Positions 1 to 10,300 of a DNA stretch of 10,300 bases are shown piece after piece. Within the stretch, counting starts at the first letter, position 1, and each line of letters begins with the position of its first letter. This stretch comes from a virus. Position numbers and translations under genes: made by a program. A model generated the notes under the pieces. That model was not told the DNA's origin and made no database searches. It was given only the letters and a program-made list of their open reading frames with translations. The stretch lies in the UHGV virus genome UHGV-0365264; one strand, 5' to 3'.

Positions 1-285
1 TAGTGGTTTACCGCTGGCGCTTTTACCCTGTCCCTGCCGGATGAATAACAGATTGCCATTTTTCACCGACGCAATAGCACCGTACTGGCGCGCCAGCCGC
101 ATCAGAAAACTGCCGTCACTCTCATTGGTCTGGTCTATATGTTCCACGGGTTTATCTGACAGGTCTTTACCCAATGCCATCTTCAGTTTGTGCCGCACAG
201 CTATTTCCTTCACCACTTTCCCGACGGTGGTCTTGTGCCACGACTTTTCACGGCGGGTACAGTAGCTGCACGACTCACCATCGCT
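1..285 (-). pseudogene. D: Fragment of P2 gpD-like tail protein (late control gene D family); N-terminal part missing, C-terminal part continues beyond window start
   Basis: Minus-strand translation reads ...RREKSWHKTTVGKVVKEIAVRHKLKMALGKDLSDKPVEHIDQTNESDGSFLMRLARQYGAIASVKNGNLLFIRQGQGKSASGKPL, which matches the central region of P2 gpD as I recall it (RREESWH...HIDQSQESD..FL.RLA...SVK.G.LLF.R.GQG..ASGK). An in-frame TGA at 286-288 lies 9 codons upstream of the first matching residues, and no gpD N-terminal sequence is seen in any frame. Confidence 0.5.
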
Positions 286-563
286 TCACCGCCTTTTGCG
301 GGAAGCGCCAAAGGATGCAACGGTGGAAGCTCTGCTGGCGCGGCAGCAACCCCCATCATTCCGGCGACAACGGCAGCCAGTGCAGCTGTATTTCTCCGGC
401 TGGTCACGTTTGCCGGGCCGTTAACAATTTCCGGCCCGTTTTCACCGACGATGCCAAACTGCCCGCGCGGGATATAGCCGCCGCTGTCATACATCCCCGC
501 AAAGCCATATCCCCATGACGGAAAATCACCCGATGGCATCATCACTTTACCGTCTGCATTCAT
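210..563 (-). pseudogene. Tail tape measure protein C-terminal fragment (gpT-like remnant)
   Basis: Frame open from 615 to the TGA at 210-212. It contains GYGFAGMYDSGGYIPRGQFGIVGENGPEIVNGPANVTS, a Gly-rich segment with a VGE.GPE-type motif typical of tape measure C-termini. Only about 100 aa are present, overlapping the 3' end of the M-like ORF and the 5' edge of the gpD-like fragment in other frames. Confidence 0.4.
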
Positions 564-954
564 CCGCCATTTCTTCCGCCAGAACGGTCTGCACGTTACG
601 GTTGCCCAGCGGCATCACCCAGCCATGGCGCAGCGCATGACGCCCGATTTCCAGCGCACCGGCATAATCACCGGCGTCGATACGCCACAGCATCACGTAC
701 ATCAGCACGTCATCCTGCTGCGCACCTCCGGCAGCCAGCACGCCCTCCGCCCAGGCGGCATACTTCGGCAGAAGCTCCACCTTGATTGCCGCCTTTTTCA
801 CGGTGGACTGGATACCCTTAAGGCGGCGGCGGTCTTCTGCCAGCTGCAGCAGCATCAGGTCATAGCCGGACGCATGGCGAACACTGCCGCCCTCCCGGGC
901 GGCCTGTTCGGCCTGAATGCGCAGGCGGTGCTGCCGTGCGGGACTCAGGCTCAT
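547..954 (-). CDS. M: Terminase small (endonuclease) subunit, gpM-like; apparently C-terminally truncated (135 aa versus about 247 aa in P2)
   Basis: Position immediately downstream of the capsid gene in O-N-M order. Start is preceded by GAGGAG with a 6-nt spacer. N-terminal region is Arg/Ala-rich like the gpM family. ORF ends at TAA 547-549, where tape-measure-like sequence begins in another frame. Confidence 0.65.
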   Translation of the reverse strand: MSLSPARQHRLRIQAEQAAREGGSVRHASGYDLMLLQLAEDRRRLKGIQSTVKKAAIKVELLPKYAAWAEGVLAAGGAQQDDVLMYVMLWRIDAGDYAGALEIGRHALRHGWVMPLGNRNVQTVLAEEMADECRR

Positions 955-957
955 GCG

Positions 958-2052
958 TTACTCCTCAGTTTCTGTTTCGGCGGGTTCTTCCACAGGCGCA
1001 GACTGCACCGCAGCTGGCTCGCTGAAGTCACCGATAGTGATGTTTTCGACCAAGGCCGCGCAGCGGTAGTCTTCAATCACATACGCTTCGTTGACGGATT
1101 CGAAGTTCTCAATCCGGTCACGTTTCGGGTTGTCGATAACAGAACGGCGGCGGGTGTCCTCCTGCCAGTAGATGGACAGGTTATCCAGACGGGTGATCAG
1201 CAGGGCATTAGCCGGGAAGAACGGCGCACGCACCGCCTGCAGGCCGCCCATGCGTTTCTGGCTGATAATCAGATCGGCGGCGATTTTCTCGCTGTTTTCC
1301 TGCTCTTTGTTAACCAGCGGGAAATACTTATCGGACAGCAACTCGCGGCTGCAGATAACAACCAGCTCATCATCATCCTGATACACCACGTCGATCAGCT
1401 CGTTAACCGCATCCATCACCACGGCGTCCAGGTTGGTATAGTCGCCGCCCTTGCCCACCTTTACCGCGCCTGCGGTGGTGGTGCCGTCCTGGGTGGTGCT
1501 GCCCATAACGTGGTCCGGCGCGTCTTCGCGGATTTTCTGCAGCCAGCCCTTATTCACGTCCTGCAGCAGCGGGTTTTCTGCGCGGTTGGAGGTTTTGGCG
1601 CGCTTCACTCCGTTAAAGCCGATCATAATGCGGTCCAGCGCCTGGCGCTTGACAATGGCGTTACGGATACGCACCTGGAAGTCCTGAAATTTCGCCCACA
1701 GGTCCAGCTTTGCGTAGGTCAGCACCGTGTCAAAGTTGGTCTGTTCGCATTTATATTCCACGTCCTCCATCAGCATCGGATCGGTAGGTTCGCGCTCTTT
1801 GGTGGTGGTGTCGGTGGTTCCGGCAATGGTGGAGCCAACGCCCAGGCCAAGCAACTGGCCGGACTGTTCCGCAACCGGCGTGATGTTAATCAGCGTCAGA
1901 AAAGCGGCGGACTGCTGGATCTGGTCTTCCAGCGTCTGCTGCACGGACGGGTCCACGGTGAACTTGCTGGAAAGTTCTTCCACTTCCACGTTGTTCAGGC
2001 GTGCCAGCTGCTGCAGGTAGGCGTTAAAGGCAAAGCGGGTATTCTTTTTCAT
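958..2052 (-). CDS. N: Major capsid protein, P2 gpN family
   Basis: 364-aa ORF. N-terminus MKKNTRFAFNAYLQQLARLNN...KFTVDPSVQQTLE and internal KGGDYTNLDAVVMDA, VICSRELLSDKYFPLVNKEQENSEKIAADLIISQKRMG and LITRLDNLSIYWQ are colinear with P2 gpN as recalled. AGGAG lies upstream of the ATG. Confidence 0.93.
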   Translation of the reverse strand: MKKNTRFAFNAYLQQLARLNNVEVEELSSKFTVDPSVQQTLEDQIQQSAAFLTLINITPVAEQSGQLLGLGVGSTIAGTTDTTTKEREPTDPMLMEDVEYKCEQTNFDTVLTYAKLDLWAKFQDFQVRIRNAIVKRQALDRIMIGFNGVKRAKTSNRAENPLLQDVNKGWLQKIREDAPDHVMGSTTQDGTTTAGAVKVGKGGDYTNLDAVVMDAVNELIDVVYQDDDELVVICSRELLSDKYFPLVNKEQENSEKIAADLIISQKRMGGLQAVRAPFFPANALLITRLDNLSIYWQEDTRRRSVIDNPKRDRIENFESVNEAYVIEDYRCAALVENITIGDFSEPAAVQSAPVEEPAETETEE

Positions 2053-2068
2053 CGGGTTTTATGCTCCT

Positions 2069-2902
2069 TCAGCAATTGGTCAGGGTGCCTGCCGGTGCGT
2101 CACCGCCCGGCGCGCGCTGGCGGTAATCTTTACGACTGTCTTCACGGCTCAGCTGCTGGTGAAGCTCGGCAAAGGCGGCCTGCTGCTCCTGCAGCGAGGA
2201 TTCAAGCTCAGAAATGCGCGCGTCCTGGTCGGACAGGGATTTATCAGTGCGCTCGCTCAGGTTCTGCTGCTCGGTGGCGACCAGCTCAACGGCTTTGTGC
2301 ACGTCTGAGAAACGCGCATCATCGGTCTGCTCTTTTTTGGTGAACAGGGCGGTGACGCGGGCAAAGAGGGACGGCTTTTCGTCCTGGGTTTCTTCCAGTT
2401 CGATCAGCGTTTCTTCGGCGGCGGTAAACAGGTTTTCAGGACTCTGCTTGCGGTTTGCCAGCGGGTTGTGCGCGGCGCTGGCGCTGAAGGTCAGCATCTC
2501 AGTGCCCAGGCTCGCCGGATCGTCAGTGGCGGCCAGGCCCACAAGGTAGGCTTTGCCGGTGTCGGCAAACTTCGGGCTGACTTCCATGGAGGTGAAAAGC
2601 TTCTGGCCTTTCTTGACCAGTTCAACCAGTGCGCTGGTCGGCTCCACGTCGGCATACAGCGCCATCTTGCCCTTCAGGGGGCCATCCTGAATTTCTTCAG
2701 CAACCAGCGCCGTCACCCTGCCGTAGCGGTTGAAGGTGCTTTCCGGCAGATATGACTTGATGTGCTCAAGGTTAATCAGGGCGGTGTAGACCTCCGGGTT
2801 GTAGCTGGCCGCCATCTGCTCCAGCCATTCGCGCTGGATTTCGCGTCCGTCGGTGGTGGCACCTTCCACCCCAATGCGGAAACGCTTTGTTTTCACTGTC
2901 AT
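2069..2902 (-). CDS. O: Capsid scaffolding protein, P2 gpO family
   Basis: 277-aa ORF directly upstream of N on the same strand, with an acidic, coiled-coil-rich C-terminal half. GGAG lies 8 nt upstream of the ATG. Position is that of P2 O, transcribed divergently from P. Confidence 0.88.
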   Translation of the reverse strand: MTVKTKRFRIGVEGATTDGREIQREWLEQMAASYNPEVYTALINLEHIKSYLPESTFNRYGRVTALVAEEIQDGPLKGKMALYADVEPTSALVELVKKGQKLFTSMEVSPKFADTGKAYLVGLAATDDPASLGTEMLTFSASAAHNPLANRKQSPENLFTAAEETLIELEETQDEKPSLFARVTALFTKKEQTDDARFSDVHKAVELVATEQQNLSERTDKSLSDQDARISELESSLQEQQAAFAELHQQLSREDSRKDYRQRAPGGDAPAGTLTNC

Positions 2903-3041
2903 GCCGTGCTCCGTTAGAAATTACTTACTTGAGCCTTATGTTTGCGGTGATGGGGGAGTGAAACAACGCGCGGCGCTTGTACGGTCAGCCACACAAACCG
3001 CAGCCGGGGAAAGCCGCGGGGCAAGGCCGTATGTTTGGGCC
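2903..3041. promoter_or_regulatory. Divergent late promoter region between O and P, with a TGT-N12-ACA element (2978-2995) of the Ogr/Delta activator type
   Basis: 139-bp intergenic region between divergent O and P starts. tgtacggtcagccacaca at 2978-2995 fits TGT-N12-ACA. Its centre is about 85 bp upstream of the O start codon, compatible with a -55 activator site for leftward transcription. Confidence 0.35.
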
Positions 3042-4808
3042 ATGAACACGACAATGACCCCCGCAGACCTCGATCCCCGTCGGCAGGCCATGCTGCTGTA
3101 CTTTCAGGGATACCGCGTAGCCCGCATTGCAGAAATGCTGGGCGAGAAAGTTGCAACCGTTCACAGCTGGAAGAAGCGCGACAAGTGGGGCGAGTATGGG
3201 CCGCTGGATCAGATGCAGCTCACCACCGCCGCGCGCTACTGCCAGCTCATTATGAAGGAGCAGAAAGAAGGGAAAGACTTCAAGGAAATTGACCTGCTGG
3301 CGCGCCAGTCAGAGCGCCACGCCCGGATCGGTAAATTTAACGATGGCGGCAACGAGGCAGATTTAAATCCGAAGGTTGCCAACCGCAACAAAGGCCCGCG
3401 CCGCAAGCCCGAAAAGAACGTTTTTACCGACGAACAGATCGAGAAGCTGCAGGAGGTTTTCCACGGCTCGATGTTCGCCTACCAGCGCCACTGGTACGAG
3501 GCAGGCAACCGCCACCGTATCCGCAACTTGCTCAAATCGCGCCAGATCGGGGCGACCTTCTTTTTTGCCCGGGAGGCGCTGATTGACGCCATCACCACCG
3601 GCCGCAACCAGATTTTTCTTTCAGCCAGCAAGGCACAGGCGCACGTCTTCAAGCAGTACATCATCGACTTTGCAAAAGAGGTGGATGTGGAGCTGAAGGG
3701 CGACCCGATGACGCTCAGCAACGGCGCGTGCCTGTACTTCCTCGGCACCAACGCCCGCACGGCGCAGAGCTACCACGGCAACCTGTACCTGGATGAATAT
3801 TTCTGGATACCGAAATTCCAGGAGCTGCGCAAGGTGGCCTCCGGCATGGCCATTCACAAGAAATGGCGGCAGACCTACTTCTCCACGCCGTCCAGCCTGA
3901 CCCACAGCGCCTATCCGTTCTGGTCCGGCGCCCTGTTCAACCGGGGCCGCGCCAAAGCGGACAAGGTGGATATTGACCTGACCCACGGCAATCTGGCCCC
4001 GGGCCTGCTTTGCCCGGACGGCCAGTACCGCCAGATCGTCACCGTGGAGGATGCGGTGCGCGGCGGCTGTAACCTGTTCGATCTGGATCAGCTGCGGATG
4101 GAGTACAGCCCGGACGAATACCAGAACCTGCTGATGTGCGAATTCATTGACGATCTGGCGTCAGTGTTCCCGCTGAGCGAGCTGCAGGCGTGCATGGTGG
4201 ACAGCTGGGAAGTCTGGTCAGATTTTCAGGCGCTGGCGCTGCGCCCGTTTGGCTGGCGTGAAGTCTGGATCGGCTATGACCCGGCGAAAGGTACGCAGAA
4301 CGGCGACAGCGCCGGATGCGTGGTGGTGGCACCACCCACAGTGCCGGGCGGCAAGTTCCGCATTCTGGAGCGGCACCAGTGGCGCGGGATGGACTTCCGC
4401 GCCCAGGCTGACGCCATTAAAAAGCTGACCCAGCAATATAACGTGACCTATATCGGCATCGACTCGACCGGCGTCGGCCACGGCGTCTATGAGAACGTTA
4501 AGGCGTTCTTCCCTGCCGTGCGCGAATTCGTTTACAACCCCAACGTTAAAAACGCCCTGGTGCTCAAGGCATACGACATTATCAGCCACCGGCGCCTGGA
4601 GTTTGACGCCGGGCACACCGACATTGCGCAGTCCTTTATGGCAATCCGCCGCACCACTACCGCCAGCGGCAACCGCCCCACCTACGAAGCCAGCCGCAGC
4701 GAAGAAGCCAGCCATGCAGATCTGGCCTGGGCAACGATGCACGCACTGTTTAACGAACCGCTGCAGGGCGAAGCCGCCAATACCAGCAACATTGTGGAGA
4801 TTTTTTGA
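3042..4808 (+). CDS. P: Terminase large (ATPase) subunit, P2 gpP family
   Basis: Long ORF whose N-terminus MNTTMTPADLDPRRQAMLLYFQGYRVARIAEMLGE is gpP-like. It has Walker-type and nuclease-like segments and is the first gene of a P-Q operon as in P2. Start chosen at ATG 3042 rather than the upstream in-frame ATG 2853, which would overlap O; no strong SD, so the start is uncertain. Confidence 0.88.
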   Translation: MNTTMTPADLDPRRQAMLLYFQGYRVARIAEMLGEKVATVHSWKKRDKWGEYGPLDQMQLTTAARYCQLIMKEQKEGKDFKEIDLLARQSERHARIGKFNDGGNEADLNPKVANRNKGPRRKPEKNVFTDEQIEKLQEVFHGSMFAYQRHWYEAGNRHRIRNLLKSRQIGATFFFAREALIDAITTGRNQIFLSASKAQAHVFKQYIIDFAKEVDVELKGDPMTLSNGACLYFLGTNARTAQSYHGNLYLDEYFWIPKFQELRKVASGMAIHKKWRQTYFSTPSSLTHSAYPFWSGALFNRGRAKADKVDIDLTHGNLAPGLLCPDGQYRQIVTVEDAVRGGCNLFDLDQLRMEYSPDEYQNLLMCEFIDDLASVFPLSELQACMVDSWEVWSDFQALALRPFGWREVWIGYDPAKGTQNGDSAGCVVVAPPTVPGGKFRILERHQWRGMDFRAQADAIKKLTQQYNVTYIGIDSTGVGHGVYENVKAFFPAVREFVYNPNVKNALVLKAYDIISHRRLEFDAGHTDIAQSFMAIRRTTTASGNRPTYEASRSEEASHADLAWATMHALFNEPLQGEAANTSNIVEIF

Positions 4809-5833
4809 TGGGCAAGAGGAATAAAAACCGCGCTGCAGCTAAACAGAACGTTCAACAGAGCAGCGGCATATCTGCAGAAGCATTCAGCTTTGGCGACCCG
4901 ATCCCGGTACTGGACCGCCGGGAATTGCTGGATTATGTGGAGTGCGTGCAGATGGACCGCTGGTATGAGCCGCCGGTGAGTTTTGACGGGCTGGCGCGCA
5001 CCTACCGCGCCGCCGTGCATCACAGCTCACCGATTGCCGTTAAGCGTGACATTCTCAGCAGCACCTATATCCCGCACCGCCTGCTCAGCCAGCAGGCTTT
5101 TTCCCGTTTCGTTCAGGACTATCTGGTATTCGGCAATGCCTACCTTGAGAAACGCACCAACCGGCTCGGTGGCGTTCTCTCGCTGGAGCCCGCCCTGGCG
5201 AAATATACCCGCCGCGGCGTTGACCTGGACACTTACTGGTTTGTGCAGTACGGATTCACCACGCAGCCCTACGAATTCACGCCGGGAAGCATTTTCCATC
5301 TTCTTGAACCTGATATTAACCAGGAAATATACGGGCTGCCCGGCTACCTCTCAGCCATTCCGTCCGCGCTGCTCAACGAGTCCGCCACGCTGTTTCGCCG
5401 CAAATATTATATTAACGGCAGCCATGCGGGCTTTATCATGTACATGACCGACGCCGCGCAGAACCAGGAGGACGTAAACAACATCCGCCAGGCCATGAAA
5501 AGCGCCAAGGGCCCGGGCAACTTCCGCAACCTGTTCATGTACTCTCCCAACGGCAAAAAAGACGGGATCCAGATCATCCCGCTGTCAGAGGTGGCGGCGA
5601 AAGATGAATTTCTGAATATCAAGAATGTGAGCCGCGATGACATGATGGCTGCGCACCGCGTACCGCCGCAGATGATGGGGATTATGCCAAATAATGTCGG
5701 GGGTTTTGGGGATGTAGAAAAAGCGAGTAAAGTTTTTGTTCGAAATGAGCTCTATCCATTGCAGAAAAAACTAAGAGAGCTTAACACTTGGCTTGGAGAA
5801 GAAATCATTAAGTTTGACGAATACATTTTATAA
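4808..5833 (+). CDS. Q: Portal protein, P2 gpQ family
   Basis: N-terminus MGKRNKNRAAAKQNVQQSSGISAEAFSFGDPIPVLDRRELLDYVEC and later segments (FHLLEPDINQEIYGLPGYLSA, ATLFRRKYYINGSHAGFIMY, IIPLSEVAAKDEF, KVFVRNELYPLQ) are colinear with P2 gpQ as recalled. ATG 4808 overlaps the P stop TGA 4806-4808. Confidence 0.9.
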   Translation: MGKRNKNRAAAKQNVQQSSGISAEAFSFGDPIPVLDRRELLDYVECVQMDRWYEPPVSFDGLARTYRAAVHHSSPIAVKRDILSSTYIPHRLLSQQAFSRFVQDYLVFGNAYLEKRTNRLGGVLSLEPALAKYTRRGVDLDTYWFVQYGFTTQPYEFTPGSIFHLLEPDINQEIYGLPGYLSAIPSALLNESATLFRRKYYINGSHAGFIMYMTDAAQNQEDVNNIRQAMKSAKGPGNFRNLFMYSPNGKKDGIQIIPLSEVAAKDEFLNIKNVSRDDMMAAHRVPPQMMGIMPNNVGGFGDVEKASKVFVRNELYPLQKKLRELNTWLGEEIIKFDEYIL

Positions 5834-5839
5834 AAGAAT

Positions 5840-5863
5840 AGGCCGCAGAAAGCGGCCTTTATT
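5840..5863. terminator. Bidirectional rho-independent terminator between convergent Q and the 454-aa cargo gene
   Basis: aggccgc-agaaa-gcggcct stem-loop followed by TTTATT on the plus strand and a T-rich tract on the minus strand. It lies between the Q stop (5833) and the cargo gene stop (5878). Confidence 0.55.
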
Positions 5864-5877
5864 ATTCCCCAAAAGTA

Positions 5878-7242
5878 TTATTCTTCTTCATCATGTACAA
5901 CTTTTTTTTCGGGAATATCTTCATTTATCTTCTTCGTTCTTGTCAGTCCCGCCTTTCCCAGAACAGCATCCATTTTATCACCACCTTTTTCCACCAAACT
6001 TTTGAAACCATCAGAGGATAACATTTCCATTATTGGAGATGAATGAGCGGTTTCCTCAACGAATCTCAACGGTGGCTCTTCAAGTCGAGTAAGTGCATTG
6101 CCAAAAAGACGCTGTGAGAAATCAGAGTCTAATTGCATCGCTTCTCTACGATAACCTTCATAGGCTTTAGAAACGCTAGCTTTGAATTCATAATCTTCGG
6201 CCAATCTGAATCGTTGACCAATTTGCTTAGTAGCTAACCAAGCAAACCAAAGCGGGGCACCTACACTGAGAATCGATAAGATAAGCTGTATGGTTAGTTT
6301 GATACCAGAGGCATTAGGATTCGATAAGTATGCCTCCAGAGCATGCAATCGAGTATAACCAACAACGGCTCCAGCCCCAAGGGCTGCGATTAAGCCTGCT
6401 ACCCATAGCCTGATACTGGCGTTAAGTTTTCTTGCTTTATCTTCAAAAGCTCCAGCTAAACCTTTAGATGTCGTTGTTCTAAAGGCCTCCTCACATTTAT
6501 CGATATATCCTTGAGCTTCAACCTTAAGTTCAGCCAAATAATCGTTAGCTTCTTTCGCTACATTTTTATGTAATTGTGCAATCGTATTTTTTATGTCATT
6601 TAACTCTTTACCATCAAGCTTTGCCTGTTCTAATCTTTCATTGATTGAATCAGCATTTTTCTCTGAAAGTTCATTTAATTGATTAATTTCCTCATTTGTC
6701 TCCCTAAGAGATTTTAAGGTTGTGGGTAAACTCTCTGCAGCATCATAAGCTTCATTGATTACATTTATCTTGCTATCGAGGTCACCACTTTTCTCCTCAA
6801 TAGTTTGAAGATTAGATTGATACAAACCTAGTCTGTTTATTATTTTTTTTGGAAGAAGTTCTTTGTTATTTAAAACTTCAAACGAAAATAGCTCATTTAT
6901 TTCCGTACTTATATAAAGCATAGAAACAAAATACGATGCAATGGCTGGCCCCGATACATTAGTATTGCTGTGGTTTAAATGGTTTAAATTGGGTTGTGCT
7001 TTATCTAACGAATAAATTATAGAATCTATAATTTCAACGTCATGTTCAGAAGGTTCAAACTTAGTCATCTTGCCTATCTTTTCAGATAGCATTTTCGGGA
7101 AAGATACTAAATCTTCTGAATGTAAGAAGGGATATTGATAATTGTTAACATCAATAAAATCTTGCTGTGGAAAACTTATTGCACTAATAGTGGTATGTAA
7201 ATTATCCAGTTTTTCTTTTAGTTGGTTCAACTTTTCATTCAT
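5878..7242 (-). CDS. Hypothetical cargo protein, 454 aa: coiled-coil N-terminal and central region, two predicted transmembrane helices, about 100-aa acidic C-terminal tail
   Basis: Long ORF in markedly AT-rich DNA. The two hydrophobic helices are LWVAGLIAALGAGAVVGY and IKLTIQLILSILSVGAPLWFAWLA. Heptad-like Lys/Glu/Leu/Asn-rich stretches precede them. A possible promoter (TTGTAA, 18-nt spacer, TACAGT) lies upstream. Confidence 0.7.
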   Translation of the reverse strand: MNEKLNQLKEKLDNLHTTISAISFPQQDFIDVNNYQYPFLHSEDLVSFPKMLSEKIGKMTKFEPSEHDVEIIDSIIYSLDKAQPNLNHLNHSNTNVSGPAIASYFVSMLYISTEINELFSFEVLNNKELLPKKIINRLGLYQSNLQTIEEKSGDLDSKINVINEAYDAAESLPTTLKSLRETNEEINQLNELSEKNADSINERLEQAKLDGKELNDIKNTIAQLHKNVAKEANDYLAELKVEAQGYIDKCEEAFRTTTSKGLAGAFEDKARKLNASIRLWVAGLIAALGAGAVVGYTRLHALEAYLSNPNASGIKLTIQLILSILSVGAPLWFAWLATKQIGQRFRLAEDYEFKASVSKAYEGYRREAMQLDSDFSQRLFGNALTRLEEPPLRFVEETAHSSPIMEMLSSDGFKSLVEKGGDKMDAVLGKAGLTRTKKINEDIPEKKVVHDEEE

Positions 7243-7325
7243 GGCTTCGCCTTTGATTACTGTATGTAAAAGATAAACGTCCTTACAATATCACACTCAT
7301 GACAACTATCAGAGGGTAAGCGCGC

Positions 7326-7347
7326 GCTCGTATCCCCGCCACGCCTG
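7326..7347 (-). other. Candidate cos (cohesive end) site, P2-like
   Basis: The reverse complement of 7327-7345 is GGCGTGGCGGGGATACGAG, matching the recalled P2/P4 cohesive end GGCGAGGCGGGGAAAGCAC at 14 of 19 positions. It sits in a GC-rich island inside AT-rich cargo, in the A-to-Q interval where P2 cos lies. Confidence 0.3.
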
Positions 7348-7394
7348 CCCGCTTTATGTAGTGGTTTTCATGCAGGTGCATGATCTACGCAAAA

Positions 7395-7414
7395 GCCCGC
7401 CAGTTCTGGCGGGC
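7395..7414 (-). terminator. GC-rich hairpin followed by a T-run on the minus strand (terminator-like)
   Basis: gcccgcca-gttc-tggcgggc stem-loop. On the minus strand it is followed by TTTTGCG. Confidence 0.4.
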
Positions 7415-7687
7415 CTTAGCAAAAACGATCCTCAAACGATCATGCAATCTCATGCAGCATAGACATGCACAGACGAGTAAAGCGAATCGGACCTTACGCA
7501 AGGTGAACTCCTCAGCGGGCATAATCAGTATGTCGGAAGATCTCTAAAAATAAATAATTCGGTTAACAGGTATGCTTACAAAAGCATATATTTGATTAAA
7601 AATCATGTAAGGGGGAGGATCTCAAACTGAATCGCCACGGGTTTTACAAATTTCGATAGTCTCTCTAACGTTTCGGCTGAGGTCAAA

Positions 7688-8113
7688 ATGAAAAGCTTTT
7701 ACGTATTAATTTTAATTCTGGTTGCAAGCTTTGTTAGCGTCCCAGTTCAGGCGGTAACAGCTAAAAACTATGAGAAAGGAACTAAAGCTCAACAGAAATC
7801 AATATCTTACCTTTCATGTGCATTCTATGGCAGTAGCACACAATTAGATCCTAGCTACACGGAGCAAGTACCTACAGCCGATATCAAGATATTACAGAAA
7901 GCAGCTTACCACGCTTACAACGATGCGCTCTCATACTTTGGCTATGAGGAACCAGATCACGAACAACGCATAATTGATTATGCTGAATTTGTGGCGTCGC
8001 AAGAAGCTGTGTTATGGGATAAGCCGGGAATGAATGGAAAGCAGGTAACACTAATTGCTCGTTCTCTCTACAATGAGAGTAACTGTAACTTGTTACTGGA
8101 CTCAATTAAGTAG
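7688..8113 (+). CDS. Hypothetical secreted or periplasmic protein, 141 aa, with N-terminal signal peptide
   Basis: MKSFYVLILILVASFVSVPVQA|VTA has the n-h-c organisation of a signal peptide with an AxA-type cleavage site. GAGG lies 7 nt upstream of the ATG. AT-rich codon usage like the neighbouring cargo gene. Two Cys in the mature part. Confidence 0.7.
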   Translation: MKSFYVLILILVASFVSVPVQAVTAKNYEKGTKAQQKSISYLSCAFYGSSTQLDPSYTEQVPTADIKILQKAAYHAYNDALSYFGYEEPDHEQRIIDYAEFVASQEAVLWDKPGMNGKQVTLIARSLYNESNCNLLLDSIK

Positions 8114-8272
8114 GAAAAAGATGGTATTTTGCCCGTAGTTTCAACCTTAATCTCCGAACCTGTCGCAGAACGGGCGTTCACTCATCAAATAAACGCCACA
8201 CCTAACGCCTCACTGTACTCGTTGTTCAACCTTGCTGACGCCAGAACCAAGTTCAGACGCCAGCAACTTTTC

Positions 8273-8506
8273 TTAATGCAGCCAGCTGTCGTCTTCCCAC
8301 ACCTTCTGCATAATCTTCATCACTTGTTTTCTTTCTTCGTCCAGTTGCAGTCCGGTCAGTTCCACACCGTTAGAGCTACCTTTGCGGATGCGAATTACCA
8401 TTTTGGGATACAGGGGGCGCAGATTGCGGTAAAGCTCGGATTCAAGGGCGTCCAGGGTAGACTGGCTAATCTTCTGCTCTTTATCGATCATTATTTCAAT
8501 GCGCAT
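8273..8506 (-). CDS. DinI-family protein (DNA-damage-inducible protein I-like; possible Tum C-terminal-type module)
   Basis: MRIEIMIDKEQKISQSTLDALESELYRNLRPLYPKMVIRIRKGSSNGVELTGLQLDEERKQVMKIMQKVWEDDSWLH aligns along its length with E. coli DinI as recalled (MRIEVTIAK...ALAGELSRR...QETWESADDW). GAGGTG RBS upstream. Start taken at internal ATG 8504-8506 rather than the track start at 8578. Confidence 0.8.
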   Translation of the reverse strand: MRIEIMIDKEQKISQSTLDALESELYRNLRPLYPKMVIRIRKGSSNGVELTGLQLDEERKQVMKIMQKVWEDDSWLH

Positions 8507-8516
8507 AAAGGTCACC

Positions 8517-8705
8517 TCAGCTGATGACATCCATTGAGCGGTTGTATTCGTGGGTTCTGATTTTTGCCATGAGTTCATCAGTCAATTCAGAAACCCACTG
8601 CAGAGCCAGCCCCTTCTCTTCATCACTACACTCACTAGCCGCTACAAGCTTAAGAAAAAAATCAATGCGCTGGAGCTTCAAAGACTCCAAAAAATAGTCC
8701 TGCAT
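8517..8705 (-). CDS. Small hypothetical protein (62 aa), first gene of the LexA-box operon; possible antirepressor (Tum N-terminal-like) module
   Basis: AGGAGG lies 5 nt upstream of the ATG. Its TGA stop overlaps the RBS of the DinI-like gene, suggesting translational coupling. Sits immediately downstream of the LexA box. Confidence 0.6.
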   Translation of the reverse strand: MQDYFLESLKLQRIDFFLKLVAASECSDEEKGLALQWVSELTDELMAKIRTHEYNRSMDVIS

Positions 8706-8745
8706 CTTTCCTCCTATGACACCAAAGTAATACTGTATATATAAC

Positions 8746-8765
8746 CACTGTTTATATTTACAGTA
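8746..8765 (-). promoter_or_regulatory. LexA (SOS) box, with a second degenerate box overlapping at 8733-8748, in the promoter of the minus-strand operon
   Basis: cACTGTttatatttACAGTA is a perfect CTGT-N8-ACAG core with consensus-like flanks. The adjacent tACTGTatatataaCCAC has one good half-site. Candidate -35 TTTACA and a TA-rich -10 on the minus strand overlap or abut the boxes. Confidence 0.65.
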
Positions 8766-8857
8766 TATAATAATCTTACTGATGTAAAACGTTTTTTTAC
8801 GTTCATCAGCCTGATATGCCTGGTATTATTAAGAGCACGAATTGTTAACCCGCGTAA

Positions 8858-10300
8858 TTAATACAGGTTCCGCCACTTATCATCTTCCTGCAAACGCTGG
8901 TTCCGATAGAAGATACGCAGGCCTGCTCCTGACGGAATACTGCCGCCGCGAAGGAGTAAATCGACCTCTTTCTCGCTGCCATCAAATCCTCTGGACTTCA
9001 GTTCATAGACGAGCTGCTGTCGCTGATGGTCTGTAATTCGCTGTTTGTAGTCTTTACGCCGTTTCGGTTTCACCAGGCGTAACCTTGCAGCCAGTTCCCG
9101 GCGCTCTTTTTTGCTCATACTGTGCAAGTAATCGTGCAACTCCTTGTCATCCATGCGGGTAATGTCCGTTCTGGTGTCCCCATCAGCTGATTTATCTTTC
9201 TCCTGTTGGTTCAAATTTTCAGCAAGGGGACAGTTATTGCCACGAGTCCAAGGGGACAGTTATTGCCACGAGTCCAAGGGGCGCAAGCGCCCTGGTCGGC
9301 TGCCGCCTCCTGAACGTCAACGGCCTTACGAACCATTTTCCACTTCACTACATGAGTGCAGATCTTGCCCTCTGCAATGGGTGACCAGATGCCATAAATA
9401 CGAATACCGTGATCACCATAGGCGGTCGGCTCTTCGTTGATTTCATAAGCGGTTCTGATCAAGTGATATTTGCGGGGAACCAACACGCCGCCCTGCTTCA
9501 TAATGTAGGTGGCAAAACAGCCAGCATCAGCAGCAGCCAGAATGGCATCAAGACGCGGATCATCCAGTACCGGCGCACCTGCTTTTTTGTCACCCTGCTG
9601 CCTTGCCGCCTGACCAGCCAGCAATCGCAGTTCACGGTAAGCCTGACGCCCCGGAATGCCAAAGAAGCGGAATTGCTGAACACGATGCAGAGACGCCCAG
9701 GCATTAACGTATTCAGCGTTATCACGCAGGGATTTACCCGTTTCCTTGCTGATCTCGCCAGCCAGACCACGCCCGTCAATGTTCTTACTGATGTATTTCG
9801 CGATGTAGCTTGTCGGCGTTCCTTTGCGCGGGTTAATCAGCTCAGACTTAAAGCGTGGCCCCGTGTTATTGCCCAGTTCCTCGCGGTCTTCACGGATGGC
9901 AAACTTACGCAGTAATGCAGTGATGGCGCGGCGGTCTTTTTTACGCATGAAGCACATGAGATGCCAGTGCACAGTACCGTCATGATGCGGCTCAGCCACC
10001 CGCACGCCATACCACCGCAATCCGGCTTTGTGCATCGCCTTACGAAATGCAGCAAACATGCCGACCAGATAATCACTGCTTTGTCTTACCGTCGCATTTG
10101 TCCAGGTCGGGTTTGGTCTGCCGTTATTGAGCGTGGAATGGAAACGTGACGGACAGGTGATGGTGTAGAAAACGGCGCAGTCACCGCGCATTTCCGCGAT
10201 AAGCTCCAGACCTTTAACGCAGGCCATCATCTCATTGCGGCGATGTGCCGGGTTGCTGCTGCTGGCGTTTACCACATCTTCCATATCCAGCGTGTCTCCG
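8858..10300 (-). pseudogene. A: Rolling-circle replication initiator, P2 gpA family, split by a +26-bp tandem duplication; 5' end lies beyond the window
   Basis: All three RCR motifs are present: FYTITCP (motif 1), TVHWHLMCF (HUH) and SYIAKYISK (paired catalytic Tyr). The reading frame ends at TGA 9211-9213 just after the duplicated 26-mer. Removing one 26-bp copy joins this frame exactly to the downstream 118-codon ORF (8858-9214). Confidence 0.7.
9223..9281. repeat. Tandem direct repeat, 26 bp x 2 plus a 7-bp partial third copy
   Basis: caaggggacagttattgccacgagtc occurs at 9223-9248 and again identically at 9249-9274, followed by caagggg at 9275-9281. Confidence 0.95.

Follow-up and report, generated by a model that had tools for sequence, protein, structure and literature searches.

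A cos-proximal hotspot of phage P2 was reportedly described by Odegrip and co-workers in 2006. The interval between the replication gene and the portal gene of P2-like prophages (gpA-cos-gpQ) is a hotspot of diversity and defence, with 1,650 gene arrangements in Escherichia coli and activity in more than one third of the systems cloned from it (Rousset et al. 2022, PMC9122126); it has been named P2 defence hotspot #1 (Vassallo et al. 2022, PMC9519451) and is also treated in a preprint (bioRxiv 2026.02.27.708500). Here we analyzed this interval in the virus genome UHGV-0365264, of which a stretch of 10,300 nucleotides (hereafter the window) carries two AT-rich genes encoding proteins of 454 and 141 amino acids (aa) between genes Q and A. 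Like hotspot #1, the locus lies between A and Q and beside cos, its content varies in otherwise near-identical prophages, and its composition is foreign. The type of locus is already known as P2 hotspot #1, and both genes are unnamed and fall outside every modelled defence family. A literature search by accession found neither protein named in any paper, and Table S5A of Rousset et al. lists both as 'hypothetical' (PMC9122126).

The two genes are almost certainly horizontally acquired hotspot cargo held in two independent slots. For the locus as a whole, the best explanation, which we favor with modest confidence, is that the slots carry independent cassettes, one encoding a membrane protein that is a candidate anti-phage factor (454 aa) and the other an unrelated periplasmic factor (141 aa). 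Coordinates are those of the window; genes were taken from open reading frame (ORF) calls and Pfam matches, and their order was checked against annotated E. coli prophages. The features upon which the argument turns are listed below.

5745-5833, plus strand: 3' end of portal gene Q, its final ~28 codons, AT-rich and hypervariable, behaving like the exchanged DNA; defined by a drop in guanine-plus-cytosine (GC) content and low identity
5834-7304: left slot, bounded by cos and the end of Q; left end of the packaged DNA
5840-5858, either strand: hairpin of a bidirectional rho-independent terminator where the Q and 454-aa genes converge, 7-bp stem with 6 G-C pairs
5878-7242, minus strand: left-slot cargo gene (ORF) for the 454-aa predicted inner-membrane protein WP_089647510.1, with two transmembrane (TM) helices
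7305-7470, no strand: conserved cos core that divides the slots, common to all related prophages; within 5834-8262, nothing else aligns to prophages with other cargo
7328-7346, minus strand: homologue of the 19-nt cohesive end (cosL), by similarity to the annotated 186 and P2 cos sites
7388-7414, minus strand: strong hairpin followed by UUUUG, within the cos core (GGCCCGCCAG-AACU-GGCGGGC)
7471 to ~8262: right slot, from cos to the DinI-like gene, at the right end of the packaged DNA, the position of old and tin in P2
7563-7592, plus strand: promoter-like site upstream of the 141-aa gene, TTAACA-18-TATATT, 10 of 12 matches
7688-8113, plus strand: right-slot cargo gene for the 141-aa small helical protein WP_000834899.1, predicted to be secreted from its Sec signal peptide

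Read on the minus strand from 7346 to 7328, the window has GGCGTGGCGGGGATACGAG followed by CGCGCGC, to be compared with GGCGTGGCGGGGAAAGCAT followed by TGCGCGC in the annotated cos of 186 and GGCGAGGCGGGGAAAGCAC followed by TGCGCGC in that of P2. By this similarity 7328-7346 is a homologue of the 186 and P2 cos sites, and cleavage is predicted to take place here; a related cos core was found in 1274 of 5426 complete E. coli genomes. Because cos lies between the two cargo genes, what the first-pass annotation had taken for a single block is two slots, which occupy opposite ends of the virion DNA. The cargo nature that it assigned to both genes holds, and the conserved cos core splits them into two cassettes; neither this cos site nor the DinI-like gene and the gene for a 62-aa protein, which lie between the block and gene A, had been part of that description. 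Whereas the papers on hotspot #1 treat gpA-gpQ as one locus, the cargo of the window occupies two independently assorting slots. P2 and 186 also differ from the window in that their left slot is empty, with cos separated from the Q stop codon by 187 bp containing only tQ in P2 and by 196 bp containing only tW in 186; the corresponding distance in the window is ~1.5 kb.

Comparison among related prophages showed that the flanks are 83-99.9% identical and that the slots hold unrelated genes, which contradicts the universal presence of the two genes with matching composition and agrees with the variable gene content expected of cargo. Beside an identical 454-aa gene, the right slot was found to hold the gene for a 225-aa protein, for a DUF8087 protein or for the 141-aa protein, or no gene at all, and beside a 65%-identical homologue it held the gene for an 85-aa protein; in all, at least five kinds of right-slot content were counted. 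In strain E308, in turn, the left slot opposite the 141-aa gene is occupied by a KAP-type P-loop NTPase, and Table S5A places the 141-aa gene alongside HIRAN or DUF262/DUF1524 partners (PMC9122126). Among the 5426 complete E. coli genomes, 101 carry the 141-aa gene, all at an identity of at least 99%, and one, NCTC 13148, carries this allele of the 454-aa gene and is also the sole genome with both cargo genes; a distant 454-aa allele is present in 57 more, including E. coli HS, where it encodes 463 aa and also occupies the left slot. Alternative cargo was sampled from E308 and from prophages spread over the ranking of cos-core matches. The left slots in this sample held a KAP NTPase, an AIPR protein, an Old-like ATP-dependent endonuclease, a STAS-like three-gene set or a DUF262 protein, all in the same strand and orientation as the 454-aa gene. 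The right slots were empty or held DarT with a macro-domain protein, hypothetical proteins, or a DUF6694 lipoprotein.

The base composition of the interval likewise sets it apart from the structural genes. GC content is 39.2% at 5864-8270, 57.9% in the left flank (1-5863) and 50.1% in the right flank (8271-10300), and in 300-nt sliding windows the GC fraction is 0.30-0.46 within the interval vs. 0.53-0.65 in the structural genes. The 454-aa gene has a GC content of 36.1% with 27.5% at third codon positions (GC3), and the 141-aa gene 40.4% with a GC3 of 38.7%; GC3 of the structural genes M, N, O, P, and Q is 66-79%. These values, including the distinct GC3 of both genes, bear out the AT-richness reported in the first-pass annotation, although its estimate in the mid-30s applies only to the larger gene, and its figure of about 60% GC for the flanks does not suit the right one, where the value is nearer 50%. 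Its bounds of 5864-8270 enclose the AT-rich core, but the actual edges are wider (~5745 to ~8850), with low GC starting inside the portal gene and an intermediate GC (38-48%) persisting to ~8850. The two divergent genes that it recognized are confirmed at 5878-7242 (minus strand) and 7688-8113 (plus strand), and hydropathy and charge rules applied to the sequences support its prediction of one inner-membrane and one secreted product. Its proposal that both genes are cargo, gained by horizontal transfer in the A-cos-Q region of a P2-like prophage, matches the published hotspot, the foreign GC content and the variable gene content.

The transition to low GC within Q was reflected in the portal gene itself, of which the last 150 nt are 35% GC vs. 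57% for the first 700 nt; this terminal stretch is 30-39% GC in all prophages whose left slot is occupied and 51-55% in P2 and 186. The last 28 portal residues are 39-79% identical among relatives whose portal body is 85-98% identical, and nucleotide homology with the E308 prophage stops at 5749. Ordered by cargo identity, the identity of the portal tail was 1.00 and 0.96 where the cargo is 100% and 99% identical, 0.79 where it is 85% identical, 0.61-0.75 at ~65%, and 0.39-0.54 where the cargo is unrelated. These results suggest that the left cassette junction falls among the final ~28 codons of Q and that the C-terminal tail of the portal protein seems to travel with the cargo. Tail identity correlates with portal-body identity (Spearman 0.83) as well as with cargo identity (0.77), and the linkage of tail and cargo is therefore suggestive only.

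Each slot was also examined for signals of transcription. The hairpin at 5840-5858 has T-runs on both sides and corresponds in position to tQ of P2 and tW of 186. That at 7388-7414 folds as RNA with -23.7 kcal/mol (z = -4.45, equaled by none of 200 shuffles) and probably terminates, just before cos, the transcription that runs leftward from the A/DinI side; a consensus terminator scan missed it because its T-run is short. With leftward transcription probably ended there, the 454-aa gene would need a promoter of its own in 7243-7385. Promoter-like sites are no more numerous in the region than expected from shuffles, and the site at 7563-7592 is a consensus match only; a GAGG Shine-Dalgarno sequence precedes the 141-aa gene. 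A further ORF (7380-7547, plus strand, 55 aa) was judged most likely spurious, having no PHROG or Pfam match and lying inside the cos core, where it overlaps the hairpin, and an Rfam scan of 5700-8900 returned no RNA family.

A moron in the sense of Juhala and Hendrix is a separately transcribed unit that has been inserted between two genes which are neighbors in related phages. The window genes resemble morons as extra genes between neighbors, of atypical composition and with a terminator after the gene, but differ in that the left junction falls within the Q coding sequence and not between genes, and in that a promoter is weakly predicted for the 141-aa gene and none for the 454-aa gene. The label of moron given to them earlier is apt as regards absence from relatives and odd composition, and in its strict sense of a unit with promoter and terminator of its own it is borne out only in part, by the terminator at 5840-5858 and by a promoter-like site at the 141-aa gene alone.

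The 454-aa protein consists of a variable N-terminal half of helical and coiled-coil character (residues 1-242), a conserved core (243-410) and a variable tail. Its two hydrophobic segments (277-299 and 314-338) have flanks rich in K and R and enclose a 14-residue loop that is uncharged or acidic; because of the positive-inside rule applied to these flanks, the protein is predicted to form an inner-membrane hairpin with both termini in the cytoplasm (N-in/C-in). The AlphaFold2 (AF2) model is all-helical, with a predicted local distance difference test score (pLDDT) of 71.5. Searches of Pfam, NCBIfam, and PADLOC gave no specific match for the protein, which belongs only to phrog_34659, a PHROG of unknown function, and its C-terminal half alone, run against Pfam at E <= 10, returned only DUF4126 with E = 0.035, under its cut-off. 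Similarly, 37 diverse members of the family compared with the family libraries matched no specific model and nothing of the SLATT_1-6 or SieB type, and a profile of the family alignment compared with PDB sequences retrieved only designed and natural coiled coils, matched by the N-terminal region, and left the core unmatched. Weak PADLOC matches to LmuB, LeoBC, ZorA and JetC (E 5e-6 to 3e-3), confined to the coiled-coil region, were dismissed as coiled-coil noise spread over unrelated families, the same scatter being seen across the 37 members, and the JGI name 'F0F1-type ATP synthase subunit b' borne by some members was judged a coiled-coil artefact.

The family to which this protein belongs is large, with 1574 proteins found by a word-indexed search and 426 clusters at 50% identity (E <= 1e-30) by an exhaustive search. 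Its hosts include Enterobacterales, Pseudomonas, Acinetobacter, Burkholderiales, Rhizobiales, Bacteroidota, Leptospira, Verrucomicrobiota, Acidobacteriota, and Bacillota. Among cultured phages, Providencia PSTCR8lys alone encodes a homologue, and 70 IMG/VR contigs carry the family, 20 of them P2-type with the gene beside the portal gene even where cargo identity has fallen to 37-44%. Two representatives of ~225-230 aa (P0224 and P0247) match the core alone. Conservation differs between the two main parts of the protein as follows.

Residues 1-242, N-terminal half (helical bundle and coiled coil): 48-50% identity in relatives at least 50% identical, 21-22% in distant relatives
Residues 243-410, core: 85-89% identity outside TM1 and the loop in relatives at least 50% identical, 52-64% in distant relatives

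The core comprises a juxtamembrane helix, TM1, TM2, and an amphipathic segment, with invariant residues W332, W335, T338, Q340, F345, E349-D350-Y351, K354, G363, R386, E389, P391, R393, and P403; the variable parts are the periplasmic loop and the N-terminal half. Against close alleles, the ratio of non-synonymous to synonymous substitution rates (dN/dS) lies at 0.08-0.14 in the N-terminal half and at 0.014-0.03 in the core, from which it follows that the gene is functional and constrained. Relatives of 360-380 aa in non-P2 phage contigs have only the core, placed behind a different coiled coil; one of these genes lies between those for a YqaJ-like exonuclease and RecT and the other just after the large terminase gene (contigs L154, 5506-6588, and L164, 5428-6570). 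The two-TM core thus appears to behave as a portable module. A search for conserved neighbors in 80 species-representative loci of the family found none, and the 454-aa gene is therefore taken to stand alone.

Single-gene proteins of prophages and plasmids that act at the membrane in abortive infection or exclusion (lambda RexB, SieB, P22 SieA, HK97 gp15), and effectors with two TM helices predicted to form pores, such as SLATT domains, are, like the 454-aa protein, small membrane proteins of mobile elements without an enzymatic domain. With single-gene membrane effectors it shares a pair of TM helices, conserved cytoplasmic helices after them, and a variable 'sensor' ahead of the membrane part. 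The likeness is architectural only, with no detectable sequence homology to RexB, SieB, SieA, gp15, or SLATT, and unlike in proteins of the RexB, Sie, or SLATT type the hairpin lies C-terminal to a helical and coiled-coil domain of ~240 residues. Foldseek matches to two viral proteins annotated as SLATT were discarded as not significant (E 0.5-1.3). SNIPE is likewise a membrane-anchored, elongated helical protein found on prophages, including P2-like ones, and its helical domain diversifies to phage targets (PMC13190303); however, SNIPE combines a single N-terminal TM helix with DUF4041 and a GIY-YIG nuclease, none of which is present in the 454-aa protein with its C-proximal two-TM hairpin.

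Taken together, we consider the 454-aa protein a candidate for a single-gene anti-phage protein expressed from the prophage, a proposal whose chances we regard as evenly balanced. In its favor, the left slot of the sampled E. coli prophages is otherwise occupied by recognized defence-type genes, and the family shows a pattern like that of a sensor joined to an effector, with its variable N-terminal half and conserved core. The two-helix hairpin would anchor the protein in the inner membrane and leave both of its ends in the cytoplasm; the helical and coiled-coil half, which evolves fast, would recognize an infection cue, and the effector would be the near-invariant core of two helices together with its amphipathic cytoplasmic segment. 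The core would probably oligomerize and so disturb the integrity or energetics of the membrane, as in abortive infection, or, less likely, block genome entry. This specific membrane-effector mechanism is doubtful as it stands. Somewhat less tentatively, the protein may found a widespread, so far unmodelled family of single-gene membrane anti-phage proteins that combine a diversifying coiled-coil sensor with an invariant two-helix effector, and whose P2-like cassettes carry the portal tail with them.

The 141-aa protein of the right slot starts with MKSFYVLILILVASFVSVPVQA followed by VT, with a cleavage motif VQA|VT; residues 1-25 have a hydropathy above 1.6, and there is no Cys at +1 and no lipobox. 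Sequence rules thus predict a Sec-secreted, periplasmic protein. In the AF2 model, helix 3-16 stands apart from the body, and the part after the signal peptide forms a compact five-helix bundle (pLDDT 76, predicted template modelling score 0.68). The family is a narrow orphan of 7 clusters, confined to Enterobacterales and 69-99% identical, and corresponds to PHROG 7437, again of unknown function. There was no PADLOC match for this protein, and Pfam and NCBIfam gave nothing specific. Cys44 is invariant in all seven aligned sequences and Cys133 is kept wherever the homologue reaches it, and the two could form a periplasmic disulfide. A role in superinfection exclusion or in lysogenic conversion of the envelope is a guess based upon location alone. 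The search for defence and virulence profiles suggested in the first-pass annotation gave no specific defence match and no virulence-type domain for either protein.

We considered whether the two genes might form one system, in which a membrane protein and its periplasmic partner are expressed divergently from a shared intergenic region. They are indeed adjacent, divergent, AT-rich, and both predicted to act at the envelope; however, cos and its conserved core lie between them and place them at opposite ends of the packaged DNA, only 1 of the 101 genomes with the 141-aa gene also has the 454-aa gene, and the 141-aa family occurs in few Enterobacterales as opposed to the many phyla of the 454-aa family. 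Owing to this independent assortment and the intervening cos, a two-gene system is effectively excluded. It is equally improbable that the AT-rich ORFs are decaying or silenced junk. That reading would draw upon the defective state of the prophage, in which the tail genes are deleted, M is truncated and gene A has a frameshifting 26-bp duplication, and upon the frequent silencing of AT-rich foreign DNA in E. coli. Both ORFs are nevertheless intact and identical or nearly so to copies in many genomes, the 454-aa family comprises hundreds of clusters at 50% identity, and the evidence of strong purifying selection on the 454-aa gene (dN/dS 0.014-0.14) effectively excludes junk.

Two further readings concern what the proteins do, and to them must be added the points that weigh against the anti-phage proposal itself. 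The consensus scan found no promoter between cos and the 454-aa start codon (7243-7385); confidence in the model of the membrane core is moderate (pLDDT 50-77); PADLOC-DB v2.0.0 holds no specific defence model for the 454-aa protein, in which no catalytic or known effector domain was found; and the N-terminal half, though evolving several-fold faster than the core, is under purifying and not positive selection. Moreover, outside P2-like phages the neighborhoods of the family mix housekeeping genes, integrases, resolvases, and mobile genes, and few of 103 neighbors are defence-like in a Pfam and PADLOC scan (Old/ATPase, methyltransferase, integrases); given these mixed neighborhoods, we do not claim defence-island enrichment for the family. 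P22 SieA and HK97 gp15 block genome entry of incoming phages, and SNIPE follows the same spatial logic. The 454-aa protein might similarly exclude superinfecting phages at the membrane and spare the host, by blocking genome entry, for example through contact with ejection or tape-measure proteins or with an entry factor of the inner membrane. Its inner-membrane hairpin with a large cytoplasmic helical domain, its encoding by a prophage and its hotspot position would all suit such a role, as would the variability of precisely the periplasmic loop and the N-terminal half; membrane-anchored defence proteins whose diversifying helical domains bind tape-measure proteins are documented (PMC13190303), and exclusion of the SieA type is reportedly a prophage function (PMC10461980). 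We nonetheless regard exclusion as quite unlikely, in that the periplasmic loop of ~14 residues exposes little to an incoming tail tip, the best-conserved part is the cytoplasmic segment right after TM2, which fits an effector better than a phage-specific plug, and Pfam and PADLOC show no homology to SieA, SieB, gp15, or SNIPE/DUF4041. It is rather unlikely, too, that neither gene is anti-phage and that both are lysogenic-conversion or fitness morons (affecting the host envelope, as in stress tolerance, colonization, or resistance against bacteriocins or against host factors) or serve the phage's own biology. Position in a hotspot is circumstantial, about two thirds of the cloned hotspot loci having been inactive against the test panel of Rousset et al. 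(PMC9122126) and machine-learning scoring having rated only 15-32% of unknown P2 proteins as defence-like (bioRxiv 2026.02.27.708500); furthermore, family members in species-representative genomes are mostly found among ordinary genes, and secretion, as predicted for the 141-aa protein, is common for conversion factors. Set against this, every annotated alternative occupant of the sampled left slots is defence-associated, no virulence-type or transport domain was found, and the family has traits typically seen in conflict genes, namely a patchy distribution, linkage to phages, and rapid evolution of the N-terminal half. An anti-phage role for the 454-aa protein remains the reading that we prefer.

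The window as a whole is a segment of a defective P2/186-type E. coli prophage, an identity that follows from the Pfam identification of the portal, GpA, and DinI genes and from a gene order like that of annotated prophages. The other genes are listed below.

547-954, minus strand: truncated small-terminase gene M (ORF and Pfam)
958-2052, minus strand: capsid gene N (ORF and Pfam)
2069-2902, minus strand: scaffold gene O (ORF and Pfam)
~3042-4808, plus strand: large-terminase gene P (ORF and Pfam)
4805-5833, plus strand: portal gene Q (Phage_portal match)
8273-8506, minus strand: semi-conserved DinI-like gene at the right edge of the right slot (Pfam DinI, 1e-22; 77 aa in related prophages)
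8517-8705, minus strand: gene for a 62-aa conserved hypothetical protein (WP_001154434 family) between DinI and A (phrog_698, 3.6e-38)
From 8858 off the window end, minus strand: replication gene A (Pfam Phage_GPA, 2.8e-83)

The 62-aa gene was found in most of the related prophages compared. Gene A contains a perfect 26-bp tandem duplication at 9223-9274 (CAAGGGGACAGTTATTGCCACGAGTC, 2.3 copies through 9281), which shifts its frame and yields the ORFs 9211-10284 and 8858-9214; the duplication is not present in the otherwise 99%-identical prophage of NCTC 13148. At the left end the window is a patchwork, in which a fragment of gpD (late control D, 1-259) and a tape-measure fragment (252-566) are fused to the 3'-truncated gene M, present from 561 on. 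The tail and lysis genes of the prophage are gone, leaving a defective remnant, and related remnants (loci L001, L005, and L008) have other deletions. In NCTC 13148 an IS1B element sits inside the portal gene just upstream of the cargo (L001, 19157-19854), and a Mu-like prophage adjoins the P2-like remnant. Prophages with an identical 454-aa gene have a second variable spot beside the CI repressor, occupied by further genes of defence type, for an AAA_15/AAA_21 ATPase in one case (L005, 1-379) and for a SNIPE/T5orf172 protein in another (L006, 1-631).

The type of locus being established, our findings do not change the understanding of P2-like phages. The two-slot anatomy matters for the counting of 'systems' in this hotspot and for the choice of genes to be cloned together, and a junction within the 3' end of Q bears on how cassettes may be swapped without breaking an essential gene. 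A large family for which Pfam, NCBIfam, and PADLOC have no model offers a cheap single-gene candidate for anti-phage testing. If the role proposed for the 454-aa protein holds for its family, which is found in Proteobacteria, Bacteroidota, Spirochaetota, Verrucomicrobiota, and Bacillota and often on prophages, the two-helix membrane core would represent a new effector module for abortive infection.

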